Assembly: GCA_965216785.1 (NCBI GenBank)
Contig: OZ244197.1
Coordinates: 1,088,001 to 1,152,000, forward strand
DNA: 64,000 nucleotides
DNA from: Thermodesulfobacteriota bacterium
GTDB taxonomy: Bacteria > Desulfobacterota_D > UBA1144 > Nemesobacterales > UBA2774
Reading direction: 5' to 3'
Shown piece by piece: positions 34,710 to 64,000 of this stretch. Numbering within the stretch: the stretch's first letter is position 1; every line of letters starts with the position of its first letter. The notes beneath the pieces were generated by a model. That model did no database searches and was not told the DNA's origin. It saw only the letters and a program-made list of their open reading frames with translations. Both the position numbers and the translations under genes were made by a program.

Positions 34710-37700
34710 CTATTCAAGATTAGCTGTATCAGTGGTGAGCATGAGCTTCCAGTCTTCAATGAACGCGGTGCCTGAATCATCGGTAGCATTTTGAGTGTTC
34801 AGGTGGGAAGTTATATAGTAAAGGCGCTCGATATTGTCCTTTTCGGCCACTCCTACGTTTGCGTCATTAAACCTCTGCTGTAAGTAAAAGGGCGGTATCG
34901 ACTGGTTATAGGCAGTTACTTGGACATGATCCACCTGCGCCAGTGTTGCCGGATCGAGCGTAACGAGATATTCGATTTCATCCGCTCCAGTGAGTGAAGG
35001 GTCCGTGTAGTAGGGGTCGAACTTGGCCTCTCCAGGTATCTCCGCAAGCTCCTTTACAAACGGCGATGGGTTATTAAAGAAGAAAGCGGGGTCAAACCCT
35101 ACCGGCCTTATGCGGTTGTTCTTCAGAGTAAACACGCGCCGTAGGAAACTCGTTGTGATATTGCCGTCCGTATCGGCAACAAGCTCCTGATATATCTGGA
35201 CTTGGTTCTGCTCTGTTATTTGCTGATAGTGCGGCTGGAAAGCCTGCGGGTTCTCAAGTACAAGCTCACTCGGAAGCACCGGGCCGTCAACGCCCTCGAT
35301 AATGGCGCCCACACTATTGGTCAAACCCGAAGCCCACAGTATATTCCCTTCGCTGTCCCTCACTGTGAACTCAAGGAATACGCGCCTGAAGTTAACTCCT
35401 GAAGGAAGGTAGTGGCCTGCGTGATTTGTGACATTTACTACTGCTTGCAGTTTCCCCTCGGGCGTAATCTCGAGCGATTCTATATCGATATCTGCAGTTT
35501 GGTTACGCGCCATCTCTAAAAATGATTCCCTTGCCGTAATTAGCGGCAGCTCGGTCGCTACGCCAGACATAAAGTCGATCTGCCTGCTGCCCAGTATAAG
35601 GGGGAACTCCTGGAACATCTCATTTAAAAATACGTTTAATCCATGCAGTGAATGGCGGGAGTATTCGCTCCGCTCCCTAAGTTTGATTTCACTGTCGGGC
35701 AGGCGATTCTGCACCGGCGGGAGCGTGTCGTCTTCGATATTGGCTATTTTAAACTCTAGCTTCTGTCCATGAAAAGTTTTGGGCATGTGACAGTCCTGGC
35801 AGGTTTGGTTTAATTTTCTGCCGGGCGCGTAGTCGCTGTTGAGCCACTCGAGGTGAGTAGTTTGCTCATAGCTGAACCCGAGCAGGTCTCCCTGGTTAGT
35901 AACTATAGGGAGGAGAATGTTATGGCACGTGCCGCAAAGGTCAGCTTCCTTAACCTGTGCCCCGAACTCAGGGATTATTCCAAGCGCGTTCCACATCGGG
36001 ACTGTGACGACCTCTTCGTACGGGCCGTAAAGCTCATCGGGAGGACCTGTAACAAAGTTCCCCGTGTAGATATTATCGGTGCCGAACCCTTCGCTTACTA
36101 TATGGTGGCAAACCGTGCAGGAGATGCCGTCGCGGGCAAGTGAGCCGTAGCGCTGTAGGTCTGTGTTGTCGGATCCCGGCCACTGTGTTACAGCGTCCGC
36201 GCTCAGCGGGGCGCCTACCGGAACTTGTGGAGGAGGCGCGATACCAAAAAGGTCTATACAGCCCTCGTCGTCCTGGCCCTCAGTGTCGATCTGAAACTGG
36301 CGCTGGCCCATTACACCGTGGCAGTGAAGACAGGTGGTCTGTATGCATATCTTAGGGTCTTCGAGACCGGCAAGCCCTGTCTCGGAAAAGAAGTTTGTCT
36401 CGCTCTCCACCTGTGCGAAGAATATCGGGTCCCTTCCAGCTTGGCCAAGCGGAGAGGCTTTCCATTCGGCGTAAGGAGAAAGGTTATATCTCTTGGTGGT
36501 GTCGTCAGGCTGTTCCTCTGAGAATATCATATTGGGCAGGAATAAATTAAAGAACGTAGCGTCGTGACATCCGATGCACTGATCCGAGGTAAGGAACTGG
36601 TCCGGGCCCTCAGCAAAGGAGACTTGATGGTCATATGTCTCCGCCGGAAGCCTTGTTTCCCAGGCAGTTTCAAAATCTACCGGGGGAATCTGGTCATAGA
36701 ATTCCAAAAATTCCTCAGTCGGCTCTGGAAGGGGATCAGTAAAAGGCACCTCAAAACCCGGGCCCACCAGGCTTTGTAAGAATTCAAGAGCAACCCTCTG
36801 GGGTAGGTGCAAGTCTCCCGTGAAATTTATGCCGATTAGTAATAGCAGATCGGGGCTGTATTGTATAAATTGAGTGCCGGGGGTAATTACATTTACCAGA
36901 GTTGAAAAAGTAGATTCGCTTGTGGCGGAAGCATGGCAGTTAATGCAGAAGTTTCCGTAAGCGTTGTAAGCCCAGGCAACGTTTGGGTTCTTAGTATTGC
37001 CGTCTACCTCCTCATCGCTGATAAACAAGTAACCTGTCGGATACCAGTTAGGATCGCGCTCTATCGGCGGGTTTCCGGTATTAGCAAAAAAACCGGGGTC
37101 TGTTATCGCTGAGGCGTCTAGTATCGGCGGGTTTCCTATTTGCCATAGAGGTGCCGGGTTTTGTGTTGATGCCGCCCTGACACTGCCCTGATACCACCCG
37201 TCAAAAGAAGCGGAATTCTTTTTTATGTAAGTAGTCCAGTTCGTCGGTGTAACGCTTACGGGTATTTCCATACAGCCGTCTTCGTCTGTTAAGATGCCTA
37301 ACGACTCATTAATAGGATGCTGTTCCTTTATTATCATAGCGCCGTCCGGAATCTCTCCCACACGACCGTCGCAAAGCCACTTTATTACTTCAGGGGAATA
37401 GTAGATGCGTACAGCAGAGGAGTGGACCCCGAAGAACTCTCCGAACCCGAATGCTCCAAGATACGGGCCGGTCATCCTCCAGTTGAGGTCGCGGTTCCAG
37501 TCAAGCTCGTTAGCGTATTCAAGGTTTCTGATAAAATCTCTGAACATGAGATCAAATTCGTTTTTCGCCTCTATATCCGAGAGAGGGGGAGGGTTTCTAA
37601 GCTCGGGCGGTGCCGGCTCACCACGGTCTTCATTTGCGTCGCACCACGCGTCTATCTCATCCTGTGAAAGGTTCACAACAGAGCCCGGACACACCCAGTC

Positions 37701-37820
37701 TTGCGGGTTAGGGGGAATAGGACTATCATCCGGGATCGTAGAGTTATTGTTGTTGTCACAACCTAATGTGAAAATGAATAAAATCAGTATAGTTATAAGG
37801 AGCTTGTATGAATTCAGCAT
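34710..37820 (-). CDS. Multiheme c-type cytochrome lipoprotein with an N-terminal P460-like domain
   Basis: Lipobox TLGC; six CxxCH (CINCH, CIGCH, CLHCH, CTVCH, CGTCH, CQDCH); PDGAMIIKE P460-like motif; GHYLPSG. Confidence 0.8.
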   Translation of the reverse strand: MLNSYKLLITILILFIFTLGCDNNNNSTIPDDSPIPPNPQDWVCPGSVVNLSQDEIDAWCDANEDRGEPAPPELRNPPPLSDIEAKNEFDLMFRDFIRNLEYANELDWNRDLNWRMTGPYLGAFGFGEFFGVHSSAVRIYYSPEVIKWLCDGRVGEIPDGAMIIKEQHPINESLGILTDEDGCMEIPVSVTPTNWTTYIKKNSASFDGWYQGSVRAASTQNPAPLWQIGNPPILDASAITDPGFFANTGNPPIERDPNWYPTGYLFISDEEVDGNTKNPNVAWAYNAYGNFCINCHASATSESTFSTLVNVITPGTQFIQYSPDLLLLIGINFTGDLHLPQRVALEFLQSLVGPGFEVPFTDPLPEPTEEFLEFYDQIPPVDFETAWETRLPAETYDHQVSFAEGPDQFLTSDQCIGCHDATFFNLFLPNMIFSEEQPDDTTKRYNLSPYAEWKASPLGQAGRDPIFFAQVESETNFFSETGLAGLEDPKICIQTTCLHCHGVMGQRQFQIDTEGQDDEGCIDLFGIAPPPQVPVGAPLSADAVTQWPGSDNTDLQRYGSLARDGISCTVCHHIVSEGFGTDNIYTGNFVTGPPDELYGPYEEVVTVPMWNALGIIPEFGAQVKEADLCGTCHNILLPIVTNQGDLLGFSYEQTTHLEWLNSDYAPGRKLNQTCQDCHMPKTFHGQKLEFKIANIEDDTLPPVQNRLPDSEIKLRERSEYSRHSLHGLNVFLNEMFQEFPLILGSRQIDFMSGVATELPLITARESFLEMARNQTADIDIESLEITPEGKLQAVVNVTNHAGHYLPSGVNFRRVFLEFTVRDSEGNILWASGLTNSVGAIIEGVDGPVLPSELVLENPQAFQPHYQQITEQNQVQIYQELVADTDGNITTSFLRRVFTLKNNRIRPVGFDPAFFFNNPSPFVKELAEIPGEAKFDPYYTDPSLTGADEIEYLVTLDPATLAQVDHVQVTAYNQSIPPFYLQQRFNDANVGVAEKDNIERLYYITSHLNTQNATDDSGTAFIEDWKLMLTTDTANLE

Positions 37821-52769: not shown

Positions 52770-54566
52770 ATGAATGCGGACAGCGAAAACTATTTAATTC
52801 CCATTGTGCTAGGCGTGTTGGCGGATAACGGCGTCGATGTCAACGATCAGATATTAGAGAAATTAATCACACCCCAGCTCGTTAAAATTAAAAATACATT
52901 TCCGAGCTCCCCGTTTTTCGTTATATCTCCCCTGGCTAATGATAAGGAGAGTCTGATAGCGCGTCTTGCCATAGACCGCTTGGATGCAGACATTGCAACA
53001 GCTTCTAAAGAGCCTGATGATAAACAGATCGAGATTTTTAAAATGGAACTTCAGAAAGGCGGTTACGCCCAATCTGATATTAAGAGGATAGGGCTGGCAA
53101 ATGAAGCGTCTAAAGGAAATAATCAAGTACTCAGTCCTTCAAAACTCACGGCCTCTCAATCTCAGATACTCATCGTGCTTAAAAACGGAGTAAAGGACAA
53201 AGCGCAGAGTGAAGTTGAAAGTGCCTTGGAGCTTAGAAATGAAGGGCGGTTCCACGAAATGTATTCCGGACGGGACAAAGATCAAAACACTTTAGATGCG
53301 CCGGATCTCGGACTCACTATCACGATCAACCCGGCGACATTTGATATTAGCACACAGATAACCCCGGTACAGGACGAGGCGCCGGAATCTCAAGAGCTGA
53401 AAAAAATAAATACGACATTTACCGAGAAGCTGTCTTTTGCTTTTAATAGGCATATTGAGCGCGTGACCGGGGTATTTGATAGATTCTATACCTCTTACAT
53501 CGAAATTCCGGATGACGGTGATAAGGACAGGCTTGCCAGATCGCCGTTTGTTGAAATCGCCGAGAAAATAGACGGCTATAATAAAGATGTTGCCGGTTTT
53601 ATAGAATCCAAAGGTGTCGAGACGGCACAACAATCCAAGGATTATTTACTTTCAGACGAGCGGGATAATCCAATTATATCGGAAGATCCCACCGTAGAGA
53701 AAATTATAGCTCCTTACAGCGGGGCCGATGTGCTTTCTCAGTTCTATCAAAAGAAAACCAACACTTATATAAACTGGATTTATATTCTTTTTTTCGCGGC
53801 TGTACTCCTATACGGAATTATCGATTTAAACTACTATCTGGTGCTGTGCTATATAGCCCTGATACCTGCGATCGCGTTTCTTGTGTACCGCTCTAAGGCT
53901 GAGAAAATCGAGGACAGATTCCTTGATTACAGGGCGCTTGCCGAGGGACTCAGGGTTATGGTGTTCTGGAGGATTGCCGGCATTGATGAGAGGGTCTCCG
54001 ACAACTATTTGAGTAAATACGCGGGCTTGGTTTCTTGGATAAGCCGCGCTATTAAGAATGTAGAGGTTGTCGGCCTTACAAATGGAGCAGGCCGTATAGA
54101 GAACAAAAAAGAGCGCGTAGAGATTACGAATAAACTGTGGATCGAATCACAGCTTGAGTACTATAGAAGGAAAAGAAATCCGCTCTATATGCGCTCTCTC
54201 GATCTGGGCAACCTGGCGCTTGTATCGTTCGTTCTCACACTCTTATTCGCGCTTTTGTTCGGCATATACCTTCTTTTTGCAGGTTTAGGCAACGACGGGG
54301 CGATAACAAGGTTTGAGGTTATGATAGGCGCTGCCGCCGCGATCGGTGTAGCCGCTCAGGCGTATAAGAGTAAAAAGGCGTATGACGAGCTTGAAAGACG
54401 CTATACTCTGACTCAGCATATATATATGTCCGCAAGTAAAAAGCTTAAGACGAACGCAGGCTCTCCGGACAGTATCCTCATTGCGGTAGGTAAAGAGGCG
54501 CTCCTTGAGAATAGCGACTGGCTCTGGACCCATAGGAATCTGCCGATCGAGCTGCCAAAGGGGTAG
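52770..54566 (+). CDS. Degenerate SLOG-like domain plus two 2TM SLATT-like (DUF4231-like) modules
   Basis: IPIVLGV, VISPLA, SQILIV align with the paralog downstream; AD.LS..YQ, FLDYRALAEGLR, WI.SQ..YY, E..DW; four hydrophobic segments. Confidence 0.65.
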   Translation: MNADSENYLIPIVLGVLADNGVDVNDQILEKLITPQLVKIKNTFPSSPFFVISPLANDKESLIARLAIDRLDADIATASKEPDDKQIEIFKMELQKGGYAQSDIKRIGLANEASKGNNQVLSPSKLTASQSQILIVLKNGVKDKAQSEVESALELRNEGRFHEMYSGRDKDQNTLDAPDLGLTITINPATFDISTQITPVQDEAPESQELKKINTTFTEKLSFAFNRHIERVTGVFDRFYTSYIEIPDDGDKDRLARSPFVEIAEKIDGYNKDVAGFIESKGVETAQQSKDYLLSDERDNPIISEDPTVEKIIAPYSGADVLSQFYQKKTNTYINWIYILFFAAVLLYGIIDLNYYLVLCYIALIPAIAFLVYRSKAEKIEDRFLDYRALAEGLRVMVFWRIAGIDERVSDNYLSKYAGLVSWISRAIKNVEVVGLTNGAGRIENKKERVEITNKLWIESQLEYYRRKRNPLYMRSLDLGNLALVSFVLTLLFALLFGIYLLFAGLGNDGAITRFEVMIGAAAAIGVAAQAYKSKKAYDELERRYTLTQHIYMSASKKLKTNAGSPDSILIAVGKEALLENSDWLWTHRNLPIELPKG

Positions 54567-54593: not shown

Positions 54594-56387
54594 ATGAGTA
54601 AACAAATAAAAACGCCTCCGAAAGTTGCGCTTACGCTAAGAGTCGGCGTGACAGGTCACCGACCTCAAGGACTCGAAAGTTCGGACCTCCTATCACTCCG
54701 CTCAAAGCTGGATCATGTCCTTAGTGAGTTAAAACGAATTTTGCATGAGATCAATAATACTCCTAGCATGTACACGCCAGGGGATCCGCTGCTTAGAATT
54801 ATATCTCCACTAGCAGAAGGCGCCGATATGCTGGTCGCCGAGACTGCGCTGGAGAGCGGGTTTGAGCTGCAGTGCGCAATTCCCTTTGAAAGAGAAGAAT
54901 ATCAGAAGGATTTTCACAGTCCGGATTCGATACGCATGTACAGGGATATGCTGGAACGAGCAACGGCGGTTTTCGAGCTTAACGGCTCGCGCCGCACAAA
55001 GGCGCTTGAGAATGAGTCCTACCAGGCGGTGGGAAGGATGGTGCTCAACCAAAGCGATGTAATTATAGCCGTATGGGACGGAAAAGAGGCCAGGGGAAAA
55101 GGCGGGACCGGGCAGATCGTCAAAGAGGCAACGCAGCTTGAGATTCCCGTCATCTGGATAGATACGGCGCCTGAGCATGAGATACGCGTCCTTACGGGGA
55201 ATGAATACGGAACGAGTGAGGGAGAAGACCTGGATGGTCTCGACAGGAAGTTAAAACAACTGCTGGCGCCTAATAGCCTGAATGATGTTGAGATTAGAAA
55301 CGCTTATTTTGAAGAAACTCAGCCCCAAAGGTCTTGGGGGGTCATATTCGAGGTTTTTTGTGATTTCTTTTCAGGTGATAAGATAGACGCAAGCGGGGTA
55401 CATGTAAAAAACTTTGAGAAAAAGACGAGAGAAGAATGGCGGCACTCAAATGGCTATTCCGATGAGAATTCTCAGTCCGCTGAATTCCTCAATAATATGG
55501 AAGAGCAGGTGGACGAGAAACTTCTCCTTCATTACAGCTGGGCGGATAATCTGGCGAATTATTACTCAAACGTCTACAGGAGCTCTTTTGTCGGCAACTA
55601 TTTGTTGGCGGGGCTAGCCGTATTATTCGCACTATTAGCCGTAACTGTTCCCTCCTATGAAAAAGTATGGATTACAATAGAGCTGCTTATTATCGTATCG
55701 ATACTGGCTGTAACAAGAATCGGGAACCAAAGGAAATGGCACGAAAGGTGGATTGACTACAGGTTGTTATCAGAGGAGATAAGGCAGCTCAGGTTCCTGG
55801 CCCCGCTTGGATTAACGACCCCGGCGTTCAGGGTTCCCGCACACGATACTCACGGTGATCCCAGGAATACCTGGGTGAATTGGCATTTCAGAGCTATAGT
55901 GAGAAATCTGGGGATAATAACGGCAAGAATTAATAAGGAGTATCTGGAGTCCTACAGATCACTACTATCCGGGCGTGAAGTTAAGGGACAGATAGGATAC
56001 CACGATAAGAACTATCCGCGTTTCCATGAAATTCATAAAAGGCTCCATTACCTGGGTAATGCATTATTTGTCTTAACCTTCTTTGCAGTGCTTTTACATT
56101 TTTTGTTTTCCTCGGAGTGGCTTACTCTTTGCGCCGCGGTGTTTCCGGCCTTTGGAGCCGCGTTCTACGGGATCAGGACTCAGGGGGAGTTTGAGCAGAT
56201 TGCCAAGCGGTCCCGGGCAATGAGCGCTAAGCTAAAAGATATAAAGGAAGAGCTCGATAGTCCCAGCTTTACTCCGTCATATGGTGATATGTCTTTAATA
56301 GCAGAAAATACTGCAGAGATTATATCTTCGGAAACTCTTGATTGGAGAATTGTATTTCAGTCGAAAAGGTTGGTGTTGCCCGTATAA
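54594..56387 (+). CDS. SLOG (Smf/DprA-LOG) domain plus two 2TM SLATT-like modules
   Basis: VGVTGHR, ISPLAEGAD, IAVWDG...GKGGT, PVIWI; AD.LA..Y, W.DYRLLSE..R, Q..YH, E..DW; four TMs. Confidence 0.78.
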   Translation: MSKQIKTPPKVALTLRVGVTGHRPQGLESSDLLSLRSKLDHVLSELKRILHEINNTPSMYTPGDPLLRIISPLAEGADMLVAETALESGFELQCAIPFEREEYQKDFHSPDSIRMYRDMLERATAVFELNGSRRTKALENESYQAVGRMVLNQSDVIIAVWDGKEARGKGGTGQIVKEATQLEIPVIWIDTAPEHEIRVLTGNEYGTSEGEDLDGLDRKLKQLLAPNSLNDVEIRNAYFEETQPQRSWGVIFEVFCDFFSGDKIDASGVHVKNFEKKTREEWRHSNGYSDENSQSAEFLNNMEEQVDEKLLLHYSWADNLANYYSNVYRSSFVGNYLLAGLAVLFALLAVTVPSYEKVWITIELLIIVSILAVTRIGNQRKWHERWIDYRLLSEEIRQLRFLAPLGLTTPAFRVPAHDTHGDPRNTWVNWHFRAIVRNLGIITARINKEYLESYRSLLSGREVKGQIGYHDKNYPRFHEIHKRLHYLGNALFVLTFFAVLLHFLFSSEWLTLCAAVFPAFGAAFYGIRTQGEFEQIAKRSRAMSAKLKDIKEELDSPSFTPSYGDMSLIAENTAEIISSETLDWRIVFQSKRLVLPV

Positions 56388-56429
56388 TCAATCGCTGATA
56401 TAATCCTGATTTAGTTATTGTTTAGGTAG

Positions 56430-57743
56430 ATGGGAACAAAAATGGCACACGACGTATTCATAAGTCACTCGGGAAAAGATAAGACTGTTGCAGACGCCGT
56501 CTGCGCGACGTTGGAAAGAGGCGGTACCCGGTGCTGGATTGCGCCTAGGGACATAGTGCCCGGCACACAGTGGGGCGAGGCCATTATCGACGCCATAAGT
56601 CACTGTAAGGTGATGGTGCTCGTTTTTTCCTCTAACGCAAACGAATCGCAGCAAATTGTTCGTGAGGTCGAAAGGGCAGTCAATAAAGGCATACCCGTTA
56701 TACCCTTTCGGGTCGAAGACGTAGACCCGAATAAGTCGCTTGAATACTACATCAGCGCCCCTCACTGGCTCGATGCACTGACACCCCCGCTTGAAAAACA
56801 CATTGAGCAGCTTAACTCAACTATTAAGCTTCTCCTTTCCAAGCAGGAAGCGGCGGCTGGACCAACTGAGACCATACGGAGCGAGCCTGAACCCACTCAA
56901 ACTGAAACCGATATTCGTAGTGATAAAATCGAGACCATACGTGAACCATATCAGGATAAAGGAGGGCGTAAACAAGGTTTTAATCCAAAGTTAATTGGAG
57001 GCGGTATTGCTGTGTTGCTGCTCATCATTATAGGGTTTTTAGTGTTCTCTGGTGATGAAGGCGATAATTTCGGCACGAATGACGATGTAATAACTACTGA
57101 ACATGATACTTTTACAGATGACGGCAAGATGTGGGGAGCGCTTGCTCTCACCCCTAGCGGCGGATGGGGATTCGCGACGAATCAGCCCTCAAAGCGTGCG
57201 GCTGAGCAAGAAGCCATGGTAAAGTGCAGCAGTCAGAACCCTGACTGTGAGCTGAAGATATCATTTGATAACTGCATGGTCTACGCAAGGGCCGCGGACA
57301 GGACTACGGCCTGGGGGACTCATGAAAATATCGATACGGCAAGGGAGGCGGCTGTGAGTAAGTGTCACGAGTTCACTGCCGACACGTGCGGCTCGCACGT
57401 CGAGCTCTGTGCGGATGGGAGCGTGAAGAGGGTAAACGTATGGGGAGCAATCGCTACCGCTGACGAAGGTAAGCACGGAGAGTCTTGGAATTATCCCACC
57501 AGGGCGGAAGCAGAAGCTGCGGCCTTAGAGGAGTGCCAAAAAGAAGGACCCAACTGTTTGCTCAGAACGTCTTTTACCAATTGTGCCGCTGTAGCCAGGG
57601 GGGATGACGGCGCTCTAGGATGGGCCAATTACAATTACATGGACGATGCCGTAAACGCTGCCTATAAAGAATGTGAAAAGCGGAGTAAGGAAGAATGCCG
57701 CCTACTCATAAAGATCTGCGCCAACGGCAAAGAAGACAACTAA
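56430..57743 (+). CDS. TIR domain, single TM, and two DUF4189-like extracytoplasmic repeats
   Basis: DVFISHS..D, CWIAPRDI.PG, I..AI, S..ANES....REV (catalytic Glu), IPFR, WLDA; TM LIGGGIAVLLLIIIGFLVF; two 103-aa six-Cys repeats starting WGA(L/I)A. Confidence 0.85.
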   Translation: MGTKMAHDVFISHSGKDKTVADAVCATLERGGTRCWIAPRDIVPGTQWGEAIIDAISHCKVMVLVFSSNANESQQIVREVERAVNKGIPVIPFRVEDVDPNKSLEYYISAPHWLDALTPPLEKHIEQLNSTIKLLLSKQEAAAGPTETIRSEPEPTQTETDIRSDKIETIREPYQDKGGRKQGFNPKLIGGGIAVLLLIIIGFLVFSGDEGDNFGTNDDVITTEHDTFTDDGKMWGALALTPSGGWGFATNQPSKRAAEQEAMVKCSSQNPDCELKISFDNCMVYARAADRTTAWGTHENIDTAREAAVSKCHEFTADTCGSHVELCADGSVKRVNVWGAIATADEGKHGESWNYPTRAEAEAAALEECQKEGPNCLLRTSFTNCAAVARGDDGALGWANYNYMDDAVNAAYKECEKRSKEECRLLIKICANGKEDN

Positions 57744-61092: not shown

Positions 61093-61701
61093 TTGGCTAA
61101 TACTAAAGGGACAGTATCGTATATGAACGGCAGACCAAAAGTGCTTTTTTCATGGAGCGGAGGTAAAGACAGTGCACTTGCTCTATATGAAATTCTCAAT
61201 TCCGGGGCATATGAGATTGAATCATTGATCACAACCGTGACGGTTGATTACGGCAGGGTAAGCATGCACGGATTCAGGACCGAGCTTCTTCACACTCAAG
61301 CCGGCTCTTTGAACATTCCGCTTGAAGAGGTTTATATTTCAAAGGACGCTTCAAACGAGGAGTATGAGTACAGTCTGACGGATACGCTTTCAAAGTACCG
61401 TGAAGAGGGGGTTAACAAAGTGGTGTTCGGGGACATCTTTCTACAGGATATTAAAGAGTACCGGGAGGCCCTCTTATCCGGCATAGGAATGGAATGCGTG
61501 TTTCCTATCTGGAAGAGGGACAGCTCGTTACTCGCCCGGAACTTTATTGAAGAGGGGTTTCGTGCGGTTATCGTATGTGTGGATACAGAGCAGCTGGACG
61601 CTTCTTTTTCAGGCCGGGAGTTTGATGAGAGTTTTCTTTCGGACCTGCCCTCAGGAGTCGATCCGTGCGGAGAAAACGGGGAGTTCCATACTTTTGTTTA
61701 A
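61093..61701 (+). pseudogene. Diphthine-ammonia ligase (Dph6)-like PP-loop ATPase, 3'-truncated by an element insertion
   Basis: SWSGGKDS, RVSMHG, VFGDIFL, DPCGENGEFHTFV then an immediate stop; about 33 aa shorter than the homolog at 61837-62508; base composition shifts at the stop. Real start is probably ATG 61123. Confidence 0.8.
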
Positions 61702-61836
61702 GTAATGGTGTAACTCGCTAATTATACTGAACTATCTATTAAAAAATCATACCACATAATGATGAATTTAGCAAGCTGTTTTTTCAATCTTTAGGATATA
61801 ATATTTTAGATCATCATGACATGTCTTTGCTAGAGA

Positions 61837-62508
61837 TTAAGACGAGAAAATGTCACAGTAATAAAAACGTTCATCCCGTAAGACTATTTCGCCTAATCTG
61901 TGTTCGATTGGATTATTGAAGATCGGGCCATCGTAGGTGAAGGTATGAAATTCTCCGTTCTCTCCACAGGGATCAATTCCTGATGGAAGGTCATTCAAAA
62001 ACTGTTTATCGAATTCTCTTCCAACAAATTGCCCATCCAACTGGCTAGAATCAACACATACTATCACTGCTTTGAACCCAGTATCAATAAAGTTTTGAGC
62101 TAATTTAGCAGTATCTAATTTCCAAATTGGAAACAAACACTTCATCTCAATTTGTCCAAGAAGTGTTTCTCGATATTTCTTTATATCTTCTAGAAACAAA
62201 TCGCCAAATACCACCTGGCTAATACCGACCTCTTTAAATTTGTTTAGAACATCAATAAATCTATTTTCATATTCATCATTAGCAGCATTCTTCGAAATTA
62301 GAACCTTTTCAAGCGGAATATTCAAAGACTCCGCCTGTTGCTCGAGTAAATCAGTGCGTAAACCATGTATGCTGACTCTATCAAAATCACTCGTCACAGT
62401 AGTTATAAGAGATATAATTTCATATTTCCCGTTTTTTTGAATCTCATGTAGTGCTAAAGAGCTGTCCTTACCACCACTCCAGGAGAGTACTAAGGGCAAT
62501 TTTTTCAT
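61837..62508 (-). CDS. Full-length Dph6-like PP-loop ATPase carried by the element
   Basis: SWSGGKDS, RVSIHG, VFGDLFL, DPCGENGEFHTFTYDGPIF, FYYCD; AT-rich codons; 5 bp downstream of the recombinase stop. Confidence 0.9.
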   Translation of the reverse strand: MKKLPLVLSWSGGKDSSLALHEIQKNGKYEIISLITTVTSDFDRVSIHGLRTDLLEQQAESLNIPLEKVLISKNAANDEYENRFIDVLNKFKEVGISQVVFGDLFLEDIKKYRETLLGQIEMKCLFPIWKLDTAKLAQNFIDTGFKAVIVCVDSSQLDGQFVGREFDKQFLNDLPSGIDPCGENGEFHTFTYDGPIFNNPIEHRLGEIVLRDERFYYCDIFSS

Positions 62509-62513
62509 CTAAA

Positions 62514-64000
62514 TTAATCCTGTATATCTATATAATCTTCCAGATACAAAGCGCCCCCATGCCCATGTAGCTCGAGGTTTCTAAATTTATATCTCAGCTT
62601 TTTTATATATTTACTTTTCATGAGCTGTATGATTCCAGGTTCTACTTCATCGTACTCTACATATTTATCTTGTAGTGGATATACCCTTATCCATTCAAAA
62701 ATATTTTGTATTTCATGCCTTAGCTGCAATCTTAGCTTAGCAAGTTCTTGGTCATCTTTAGCAGATTCTAGAAAGTTATATGCTTCCTTTATATTGTCTT
62801 TTTGTTTTAAAAATCTGTTCCTTTGGTCAACTAAATCTTTTATTTCCTGTCCAAGGCTTTTGTTTTTGATAAGCAATTTTTGTTTAGCTGTTCGTTTTTC
62901 TGTAACTTCTTTGTCATATATTTTCTTATTCTCTTCGTCATCTGTAATACTGATTGTTTGTAGTAAATTTTTAATCTGAGAATCCAGATCATTTAGTATA
63001 AAATTGTTCTCTGATATTATTTGTTCTTTTTCTTTCTTAAGCTTTGTCGTTTCATCTTCATCTGGTAATAGTTTGTTAATATCCAGTTCATCAAAATTCT
63101 CAAAGAATATCCTCTCAAATTCATTGTAACGTACTGACTTAGCTGTACAAACCATGTCTCTTCTACTAACTTCTAAATCCGGTATTTTTCGACGGTTTAA
63201 TTTAGCTGCAATCTTTGCATCAATTTGTTTTTGATCTTTTTTTATGTCTATTGAAACTTTATTTTTTCGTCTTCTGCTATCACAAATAAGGTATTGAACT
63301 CCTTTATCCACAAACTGCATTGAGCTTCCACATATACCACATTTAACAACATGTGAAAACAAGTTATTCCCTTTATCCTTATTACCTCCTCCACCACCAT
63401 TGCCAGGGAATTTACTATTTTGTCGAATAAGCTCTTGTACCCTGTAAAATAAACCTTCTTCAATTACCTTTGGATAGTAATCTTTTATGGGGTCACCTTT
63501 CGCAACAGGTAATTCCCTTTCTTCCTCGTTACCGTTTTTGATGATCGTTTTAGTTTTCATTTCATGTGGCTGGTATTCTCCGATTAATTTCCTATTTTTA
63601 AGTATTTTGCTTATGTATGCATCGCGCCAACCGCCAGACTTGTTTCTAGAACTTTTAGGTGGTTTCCAAACGTCTGGATCAGCATTTAGTTCTTTTTCGA
63701 TCTTATAACTCCCTTTGCCTTCGAGTCTTTTTTGAAAAATTAATTCTATTGCTTTACATGCTTTCTCTATTGGAACAAATTCAGGTTTGTCAGCCGATAA
63801 TTTAAGCCAGAGAGGACATTTAGCACTATATATTCTTAGTTCTTTTTTACGTAATTTCTCCCTTTTTTCTTCTAATGCTTCTCTTATACGTTTTGATTTT
63901 TTTAAAGATTCATTGTGAGCTGCAGTCATTAAGTAAATACTATTAGTAAGTAGATTTGAATTCTTATTGATACTGCTTCTGTCGTATTCCTGATCATCTT
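62514..64000 (-). CDS. Large serine recombinase/integrase (catalytic N-terminus outside window)
   Basis: Frame is open to the window end (..DDQEYDRSS..IYLMTAAHNESLKKSKRI); P.WL, W....I.KILKNR..IG, DYYPKVI, NLFS..VKCGICG and C...R...C zinc ribbon, coiled-coil tail. Confidence 0.88.
   Translation of the reverse strand, partial: DDQEYDRSSINKNSNLLTNSIYLMTAAHNESLKKSKRIREALEEKREKLRKKELRIYSAKCPLWLKLSADKPEFVPIEKACKAIELIFQKRLEGKGSYKIEKELNADPDVWKPPKSSRNKSGGWRDAYISKILKNRKLIGEYQPHEMKTKTIIKNGNEEERELPVAKGDPIKDYYPKVIEEGLFYRVQELIRQNSKFPGNGGGGGNKDKGNNLFSHVVKCGICGSSMQFVDKGVQYLICDSRRRKNKVSIDIKKDQKQIDAKIAAKLNRRKIPDLEVSRRDMVCTAKSVRYNEFERIFFENFDELDINKLLPDEDETTKLKKEKEQIISENNFILNDLDSQIKNLLQTISITDDEENKKIYDKEVTEKRTAKQKLLIKNKSLGQEIKDLVDQRNRFLKQKDNIKEAYNFLESAKDDQELAKLRLQLRHEIQNIFEWIRVYPLQDKYVEYDEVEPGIIQLMKSKYIKKLRYKFRNLELHGHGGALYLEDYIDIQD

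Follow-up and report, generated by a model that had tools for sequence, protein, structure and literature searches.

A gene that joins a TIR domain to a single predicted membrane helix and a cysteine-rich tail raises the question of what its product would sense, on which side of the membrane, and to which partner it would pass the signal. Such a gene occurs in the window (by which we mean the whole stretch of 64,000 nucleotides that was analyzed), where it is the last of three co-oriented genes, here called gene A, gene B and the TIR gene, that are separated by intergenic gaps of 27 and 42 nt (Table 1).

Table 1. Features of the three-gene locus, in window coordinates.
Feature	Position	Strand	Basis
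Predicted effector paralog A, 598 residues: degenerate SLOG-like N-domain and two SLATT (2TM) units	52770..54566	+	Profile match to gene B
Predicted effector B, 597 residues: YpsA-like SLOG (residues ~13-196), helical stalk, two SLATT units (4 predicted TM)	54594..56387	+	NCBIfam, model
Likely internal sigma-70-type promoter, TTGCCC-17-TATAAT, ahead of the TIR gene	56376..56404	+	Joint-best scan site, 10/12; putative function
TIR-TM-2xDUF4189 receptor-like gene	56430..57743	+	ORF, 437 residues, Pfam; likely start 56442
TIR domain, residues 5-137	56442..56840	+	Pfam, E79, Q75, HWLDA motif, dN/dS 0.018
P/T/E-rich linker and basic juxtamembrane patch, residues 141-187	56850..56990	+	Composition; low model confidence
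Single predicted TM helix, residues 188-206, signal-anchor type, N-in/C-out	56991..57047	+	Hydropathy, charge
DUF4189 repeat 1, six Cys	57132..57410	+	Pfam, Cys count, model
DUF4189 repeat 2, six Cys; matches Rv1813c (7nhz)	57441..57719	+	Pfam; sequence match E 1.1e-6

The product of the TIR gene, whose second Met codon (56442) is the start in most orthologs, matches Pfam TIR_2 over residues 9-117 (E 2e-22) and DUF4189 in two stretches (E 7.9e-38), and its closest named match is from Candidatus Dadabacteria UBA2774 (84% identity). Comparison with named defense families gave only weak PADLOC and NCBIfam TIR matches, far under their cut-offs. A preliminary description of this DNA had pointed to a linker rich in P, T and E, followed by a basic patch and a single membrane helix, and each of these is borne out: P, T and E account for 16 of the 36 residues from 141 to 176, and residues 188-206 form the only hydrophobic segment of the protein (Kyte-Doolittle 2.93, the next best being 1.29), with five K/R in the 20 residues before it and, after it, no K/R and seven D/E. 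This K/R bias and all 12 Cys are conserved in 20/20 full-length orthologs, and hydropathy and charge together place the TIR inside and the DUF4189 pair outside in 21/21 sequences, as had been proposed. A cytoplasmic TIR, a single TM helix and an external Cys-rich domain make up a predicted receptor-like topology that is supported by these features, and the protein is likely to be an inner-membrane receptor, judging from its sequence. In the wider TIR family, the positive-inside bias is found in only 49 of the 86 TM-bearing homologs. The AlphaFold model of the protein (mean pLDDT 67.9, pTM 0.41) has the ectodomain, for which such a model had been suggested, as two two-lobed domains that are confidently folded, and a disordered linker with pLDDT < 50 over residues 142-197; a fold search with this model returned TIR domains and Rv1813c.

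The two repeats of the ectodomain, beginning at 57132 and 57441 with a period of 309 nt, had been recognized from the letters alone, and Pfam assigns both to DUF4189. Their six Cys each (266/273/282/312/320/327 and 369/376/385/415/423/430) lie in sequences that are identical at 32 of 100 positions without gaps, compared with a mean of 6.8 and a maximum of 17 in 10,000 shuffles. Since the identity of the repeats is only 32% at the protein level and 47% at the DNA level, the duplication is old. Disulfides in the DUF4189 pair are plausible, and a periplasm in which they form is plausible for this host because its genome carries Omp85, DsbB, VKOR and a DsbA-like gene. The preliminary description had taken the repeats to be disulfide-bonded periplasmic binding modules, and this part agrees with what is reported of the fold, which is disulfide-bonded, periplasmic and protein-binding: Rv1813c, which defines it, has two disulfides (bioRxiv 10.1101/2021.01.31.428746), and the periplasmic DUF4189 protein XAC2611 (Tpf) blocks killing by kin via a type IV secretion system (T4SS) and pulls down VirB5, a pilus-tip protein of that system (bioRxiv 10.64898/2026.05.09.723464). 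DUF4189 is thus not the functional blank that it had been considered to be, as it has one reported partner, VirB5. The term TIR is absent from the main text of the same preprint, which describes Tpf and VirB5 as highly variable and Tpfs as small, soluble proteins encoded in T4SS loci (bioRxiv 10.64898/2026.05.09.723464). The likeness of our ectodomain to the Tpf/Rv1813c family comprises the two-lobed extracytoplasmic disulfide fold, a match to 7nhz both by sequence (E 1.1e-6) and by fold, and a DUF4189 domain with three predicted disulfides, as in Tpfs; it differs from Tpfs in being tandem, membrane-anchored, fused to a TIR and conserved rather than hypervariable, and in that no T4SS was found in the carriers.

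Elsewhere DUF4189 has as its fusion partners a TM kinase, caspases, proteases and peptidoglycan-binding domains (54 proteins picked from the best 150 matches, PG_binding_1 being present in five of the 54 and SH3_3 in one), and in the Ser/Thr kinase fusion it is placed outside the TM helix. These fusions lead us to regard DUF4189 as a portable extracytoplasmic binding module. Individual examples (P0317, P0249, P0274, P0288, P0358, and P0359) include, with a TM helix in between, fusions to a Ser/Thr kinase (Acaryochloris) and to a zinc ribbon, as well as fusions to caspase domains; caspase proteins with variable extracellular C-termini have been described previously (PMC8195603). As to what the module might bind, the ectodomain has a dN/dS of 0.06-0.08 within one genus, g3 (eight genomes; NG86, with some dS values saturated), beside 0.09 for a neighboring transporter, a purifying selection unlike that of a fast-evolving defense sensor. 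Because Tpf and VirB5 are highly variable whereas this ectodomain is constrained, the data are in better agreement with a conserved ligand, for example a component that injection machines have in common, a cell-wall cue or a stress cue, than with strain-specific recognition of VirB5. A VirB4-family gene was found in 0/33 genomes of the host's family, while the control search was positive in Caulobacter, and a pilus ligand, if there is one, would therefore be foreign; a search for the VirB5 family was blank, as it also was in the controls. Five genomes of genus g3 (L018-L022) also encode a stand-alone DUF4189-like protein of ~150 residues, whose N-terminus is hydrophobic and whose gene adjoins one that we take to be CYTH-like.

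The TIR domain retains the Glu in SQQIVREVE to which attention had been drawn. This residue, E79 (codon 56664-56666), stands in the catalytic position and is conserved in 118/118 TIR homologs (the homolog analysis drew on 120 listed proteins; TIR relatives numbered 3708 among 7999 scored), and the domain as a whole has a dN/dS of 0.018. Four residues ahead of it, at a position on which the preliminary description is silent and where the usual residue is Trp, Q75 aligns with the Trp of a solved TIR, and Gln is present at this position in 115/118 homologs. The Trp of the WxxxE motif is required for cyclization of ADP-ribose (ADPR), an aromatic residue being found there in 12/12 cyclizing TIRs examined (bioRxiv 2022.05.07.491051), and a conserved Glu is by itself no guarantee of TIR activity (bioRxiv 10.64898/2026.04.20.719644). 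As Gln replaces this cyclization-linked Trp, the product of the QxxxE TIR, if it cleaves NAD+, is more likely to be linear ADPR or a non-2'/3' derivative than 2'/3'cADPR; on sequence grounds, the Gln argues against a cyclic product and hence against the canonical cADPR of type VII Thoeris.

The survey of ectodomain swapping that the preliminary description had suggested shows that the ectodomain is swapped among homologs. Among the 98 listed non-orthologous TIR homologs, whose median TIR identity is 68%, 78 have one predicted TM helix and a tail of at least 60 residues, and the 100 single-TM TIR proteins obtained by adding the orthologs fall into 30 ectodomain clusters. The tails (Pfam, 58/98 scanned) include TPR, Sel1, WD40, LRR, ankyrin, PDZ, PPC and YARHG domains; many give no match in Pfam, and in one case the tail is a second TIR. 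P0027 has a TIR that is 87% identical and falls in the same TIR clade, and its ectodomain is unrelated, which leads us to consider it a direct ectodomain swap. For P0037 the tree requires two changes and so points to an independent origin of the TIR-DUF4189 fusion, but its branch is long. An ESM Atlas TIR cluster has 132 members, 73% of them with DUF4189 and mostly from Pseudomonadota where the lineage is known, indicating that the fusion is not confined to Dadabacteria. One member of the same TIR family, P0079, is a TIR-TM-LRR protein and has literally the layout of an inverted Toll-like receptor (TLR). Genus g3 (L172, L178, and L179) and genus g5 (L173-L177) also carry a second gene from this TIR family, which encodes several TM helices, and no SLOG-SLATT neighbor was seen in these 3-kb loci. 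With regard to carriage by phages, viral scans gave 14 TIR loci at 34-36% identity and matches to SLOG only, and a full-length SLOG-2xSLATT effector was absent among the 80 viral loci returned.

The candidate partners of the TIR are the products of the two upstream genes. Gene B matches SLATT_1 (NF033634; NCBIfam) in two stretches (E 7e-18), and its model (pLDDT 91.7) matches YpsA (2nx2) with Z 17.0 and an rmsd of 2.5 over 158 aligned residues, followed by DprA, LOG proteins, the SLOG of ThsA (Z 7.7) and TRPM chains. The motifs GxTGHR, GxD, Y143 and GGT of its SLOG are near-invariant in 60 homologs (GGT and GxD in 60/60 each), GxD/E being the signature with which YpsA is predicted to bind its substrate (PMC6459960). 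No SIR2 match was found in gene B, in which the SLATT units come after the SLOG, and the effector profile had no significant match among PDB sequences. Gene A is a full-length paralog of gene B (profile match with a probability of 99.96, E 6e-39, 551 columns) that is without GxTGHR, GxD, Y and GGT in every ortholog for which the N-domain is available, and its closest outside relatives retain these motifs. The SLATT part of gene A is nonetheless under purifying selection (dN/dS 0.066). Prediction of a complex between the membrane parts of A and B scored 0.25, against a mark of 0.32. In one genome (G032; L029:12146-14081) paralog A appears as two overlapping ORFs, from either a frameshift or an assembly error.

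The ectodomain was present in 11 of 60 relatives, all of them in one family (f1), where this amounts to 11 of 32, and gene B was present in the same 11 and in two relatives from another family. Gene B lies immediately 5' of the TIR gene in 11/11 carriers (in one of them across a contig break), and gene A lies 5' of gene B in 10/11, the contig ending at this point in the remaining one. In two genera the unit keeps to a fixed chromosomal position, with metabolic genes around it, and PADLOC found no system beyond generic enzyme matches among the genes from 30.6 to 62.5 kb of the window. DUF5995 and P450 genes further upstream, considered as parts of the unit, were rejected, since the stretches listed for genus g3 do not have them at this site. 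Ahead of the TIR gene, the element TTGCC(C/T)-17-TATAAT, with its -35 hexamer inside coding sequence, is conserved in 11/11 genomes compared; the promoter scan overall was at chance (12 sites found, 9.2 ± 3.1 expected), and it is the cross-genome conservation that backs this single site. On account of this promoter-like element, the TIR receptor may be transcribed alone as well. The fixed chromosomal position, the purifying selection on the ectodomain and the likely promoter of its own are features that speak against a classic arms-race defense.

To what extent TIR and SLOG-2xSLATT genes belong together could be judged from more distant bacteria, in a metagenome survey of gene B relatives, for which 497 loci were confirmed and the best 80 covered. 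A TIR gene was present in 32 of these 80 loci, in 29 of them within 1.5 kb and in 27 of the 29 on the same strand, corresponding to 17.3 TIR genes per 100 kb within 1.5 kb of gene B relatives, compared with 1.1 at greater distances and 0.064 across the host genome; these figures are to be read with the TIR profiles having been seeded from the same loci, 17 of the 29 positives belonging to one clade, and many contigs being short. TIR_2 was above the cut-off in 19 of the 21 partners scanned by Pfam. No TIR was found in 13 of the 30 gene-B loci flanked by at least 2 kb on both sides, some of which have TrkA-N or TPR-S neighbors. The architectures of the partners, which lie on several branches, comprise SIR2-TIR, TIR-TM, TIR-NB-ARC-WD40, TIR-FHA, TIR-TM-FGE-like, TIR-TM-SPOR and TIR-TPR, and in 19 of 29 the TIR is followed by a hydrophobic segment (at a threshold of 1.6, and weakly so in the large clade) and by a long tail. 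A Caballeronia plasmid carries a further pairing, and in G048 a soluble TIR-TPR protein with QxxxE is encoded ~110 nt upstream of a SLOG-2xSLATT gene. As the pairings span architectures and branches, we consider SLOG-2xSLATT to be a recurrent TIR-linked effector, often accompanying membrane-anchored TIRs. Three further arrangements were noted among the loci: a trio of TIR-(weak TM)-TPR, a variable gene of ~180 residues without a Pfam match, and SLOG-2xSLATT in the L057-L096 clade (e.g., L059:3343-7901); SLOG-2xSLATT followed by a SIR2-like-TIR fusion (L054:1987-3399 and L055:8900-10333); and SLOG-2xSLATT adjoining TrkA-N and/or RyR membrane proteins (L088, L090, L092, L093, L094, L130, and L103, of which L093 and L094 were assigned to the group by N-terminal similarity).

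We propose that the locus encodes a Thoeris-like pathway that is driven from outside, in defense or in surveillance for breaches, and that is TLR-like in its working, a reading to which we give a probability of about 0.5. The DUF4189 pair would bind a periplasmic cue, and this binding would cluster the cytoplasmic TIRs, which would then cleave NAD+ to yield an ADP-ribose-type signal. The signal would bind the SLOG of the gene B protein, whose SLATT membrane assembly may then open as a channel or pore and change membrane permeability, with paralog A as a putative sensor-dead partner subunit of that assembly. If the purpose is defensive, what is detected would be a foreign apparatus breaching the envelope or a conserved envelope cue. 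SLOG domains sense TIR products in Thoeris and ADPR in TRPM2 (bioRxiv 2021.01.06.425286), and SLATT proteins are the effectors of type VII Thoeris (bioRxiv 10.64898/2025.12.03.692087). The two upstream SLOG-SLATT genes, a context that the preliminary description had missed, make it more likely that the TIR generates the signal within a Thoeris-like unit than that it serves as an adaptor scaffold in the manner of TLRs. A more specific version seems improbable in its full detail: a surface immune receptor whose DUF4189 pair, co-opted from the family with a binder of the T4SS pilus tip, detects a foreign pilus or injection apparatus, whose Gln-type TIR makes ADPR or a new derivative, and whose heteromeric SLOG-SLATT channel opens in the manner of TRPM2, as one of about 30 or more inverted Toll-like receptors distinguished by interchangeable ectodomains.

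The parallels with known systems are partial. Thoeris types I (a ThsB TIR and the SIR2-SLOG protein ThsA) and VII (a TIR and the SLATT protein ThsH, with cADPR) have, as here, a catalytic-Glu TIR adjoining a SLOG or SLATT effector. In contrast to them, the TIR of our locus is membrane-anchored with a periplasmic module, has QxxxE and lies outside a defense island, and the effector, in which SLOG is joined to two SLATTs, is present in an intact and a degenerate copy; the defense-island location and mobile distribution that are usual for Thoeris give way here to metabolic flanks and fixed synteny. The SIR2 NADase that type I fuses to SLOG is lacking, and the SLATT effector of type VII is present with an added SLOG, none being described for ThsH in the text considered from the Thoeris preprint, which lists 29 putative types (bioRxiv 10.64898/2025.12.03.692087). 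The TIRs of Thoeris that are described in the papers cited here sense phage infection. With animal TLRs the protein shares an ectodomain, a single TM helix and a cytoplasmic TIR, and to this extent the inverted-TLR idea of the preliminary description holds as a receptor-like layout. It fails as a statement of membership, since the orientation is N-in rather than type I, the ectodomain is a DUF4189 pair rather than an LRR, and the output is likely a small molecule for an adjacent effector; the likeness is an analogy and not orthology. Some TLR TIRs do produce cADPR (bioRxiv 10.64898/2026.04.20.719644), and a survey of E. coli TIR systems remarked that membrane anchoring and other traits of TLRs seem in part to be missing from bacterial TIR systems (PMC11350192). 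TRPM2, an ADPR-gated channel, likewise has SLOG fused to a membrane domain, and TRPM chains are among the fold matches of gene B, whereas the membrane domain of gene B is SLATT and unrelated to the TRP pore, making this a functional analogy only. Close in layout are the PCTM and receptor-like TIR-ParA systems, which are computational predictions only and combine a type II single-TM protein that has a variable periplasmic sensor with an upstream SLATT or other effector; their constant cytoplasmic domain is a ParA NTPase and ours is a TIR (bioRxiv 10.64898/2026.10.19.760177). TIRs with SLATT or SLOG have been predicted earlier (PMC9503650, PMC7159879), and the SLOG/SLATT contexts of Burroughs et al. 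2015 are relayed in PMC7159879, PMC9503650 and PMC6459960. In the literature searched, with partial coverage of subscription papers and supplements, no paper was found on TIR-TM-DUF4189 or on an intact and degenerate effector pair. Burroughs et al. 2015 reportedly defined the SLOG/SLATT contexts and may already show TIRs with SLOG-SLATT fusions. The effector class itself may already stand in that paper or in Table S1 of the Thoeris preprint.

The same wiring could instead serve ordinary physiology, with a self cue (cell-wall fragments, envelope stress, or contact) and a SLOG-SLATT assembly that acts as a non-lethal, regulated ion channel. We judge this unlikely, although the fixed site among metabolic genes in two genera without a PADLOC system from 30.6 to 62.5 kb, the purifying selection on all parts, the frequent fusion of DUF4189 to peptidoglycan-binding domains, and the TrkA-N/RyR membrane proteins adjoining some gene-B relatives are all in keeping with it; opposed to these stand the patchy presence (11/32 in the family), the characterization of TIR, SLOG and SLATT mainly in abortive-defense systems, and the role in interbacterial conflict of the one periplasmic DUF4189 protein that has been tested. 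It is also conceivable, if quite unlikely, that the receptor is self-sufficient, its clustered TIR depleting NAD+ or signaling by TLR-like TIR-TIR contacts, and that the upstream genes are only co-inherited. The likely promoter of the TIR gene would suit such a protein, as would QxxxE, which is compatible with a non-cyclizing NADase (bioRxiv 2022.05.07.491051). Moreover, related TIR-TM genes occur in 5/7 genus g5 genomes in which no SLOG-2xSLATT was found, the only other TIR gene of the host lies in an integrated element, and a weak search for longer fused effector forms, TIR-effector fusions included, found none among 7988 candidates. Co-inheritance at a single locus, however, cannot explain why SLOG-2xSLATT lies beside unrelated TIR proteins on several branches.

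A different role for the ectodomain, that of a tether or inhibitory cap with the TIR being activated from within the cell or once the ectodomain is lost or cleaved, appears highly doubtful to us. The region of linker and TM helix is long, variable (26% identity between genera) and modeled with low confidence, so that rigid transmission through it is unlikely, and the ectodomain is conserved; yet activation by clustering is still possible with a flexible linker, and the ~30 ectodomains that can replace one another, among which binding repeats (TPR, LRR, WD40, ankyrin, Sel1, and PDZ) are numerous, have the appearance of specificity modules. That the six-Cys DUF4189 domains, as in Tpf, mark a membrane-bound exclusion factor against the cell's own T4SS is extremely unlikely and largely excluded by the VirB4-family result for the host's family, and Tpfs are moreover small, soluble, highly variable in sequence and located in T4SS loci.

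If the proposed externally driven, Thoeris-like pathway is correct, a TIR receptor that binds outside, together with its encoded effector, would extend bacterial TIR signaling to envelope events that precede entry into the cytoplasm. Three genes, together with mutants of the catalytic site and of the sensor and with ectodomains that can be exchanged, would make a complete small circuit that can be cloned, and it would give the large QxxxE TIR family its first signal, the YpsA-clade SLOG a ligand, and DUF4189 a receptor role.

Several other features of the region were recorded. On the reverse strand, window positions 34710-37820 hold an ORF of 1036 residues without a Pfam or PADLOC match at E 1e-5. 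An integrated low-GC element starts ~5 kb downstream of the TIR gene (window 62514-64000 and L276, G000:C1:1150514-1164038) and was not seen in the fetched stretches of relatives; its defense-related and other genes include a serine recombinase, a PD-(D/E)XK/RNase H-like protein, a CapP/IrrE-like peptidase, a type IIG restriction-modification enzyme and a tyrosine integrase, as well as a second TIR gene with a ThsB-like C-terminal part and YxxxE, with no obvious adjoining effector. Two convergent paralogs of the diphthamide-synthase family occupy window positions 61093-62508, and the first of them ends short beside the integrated element.
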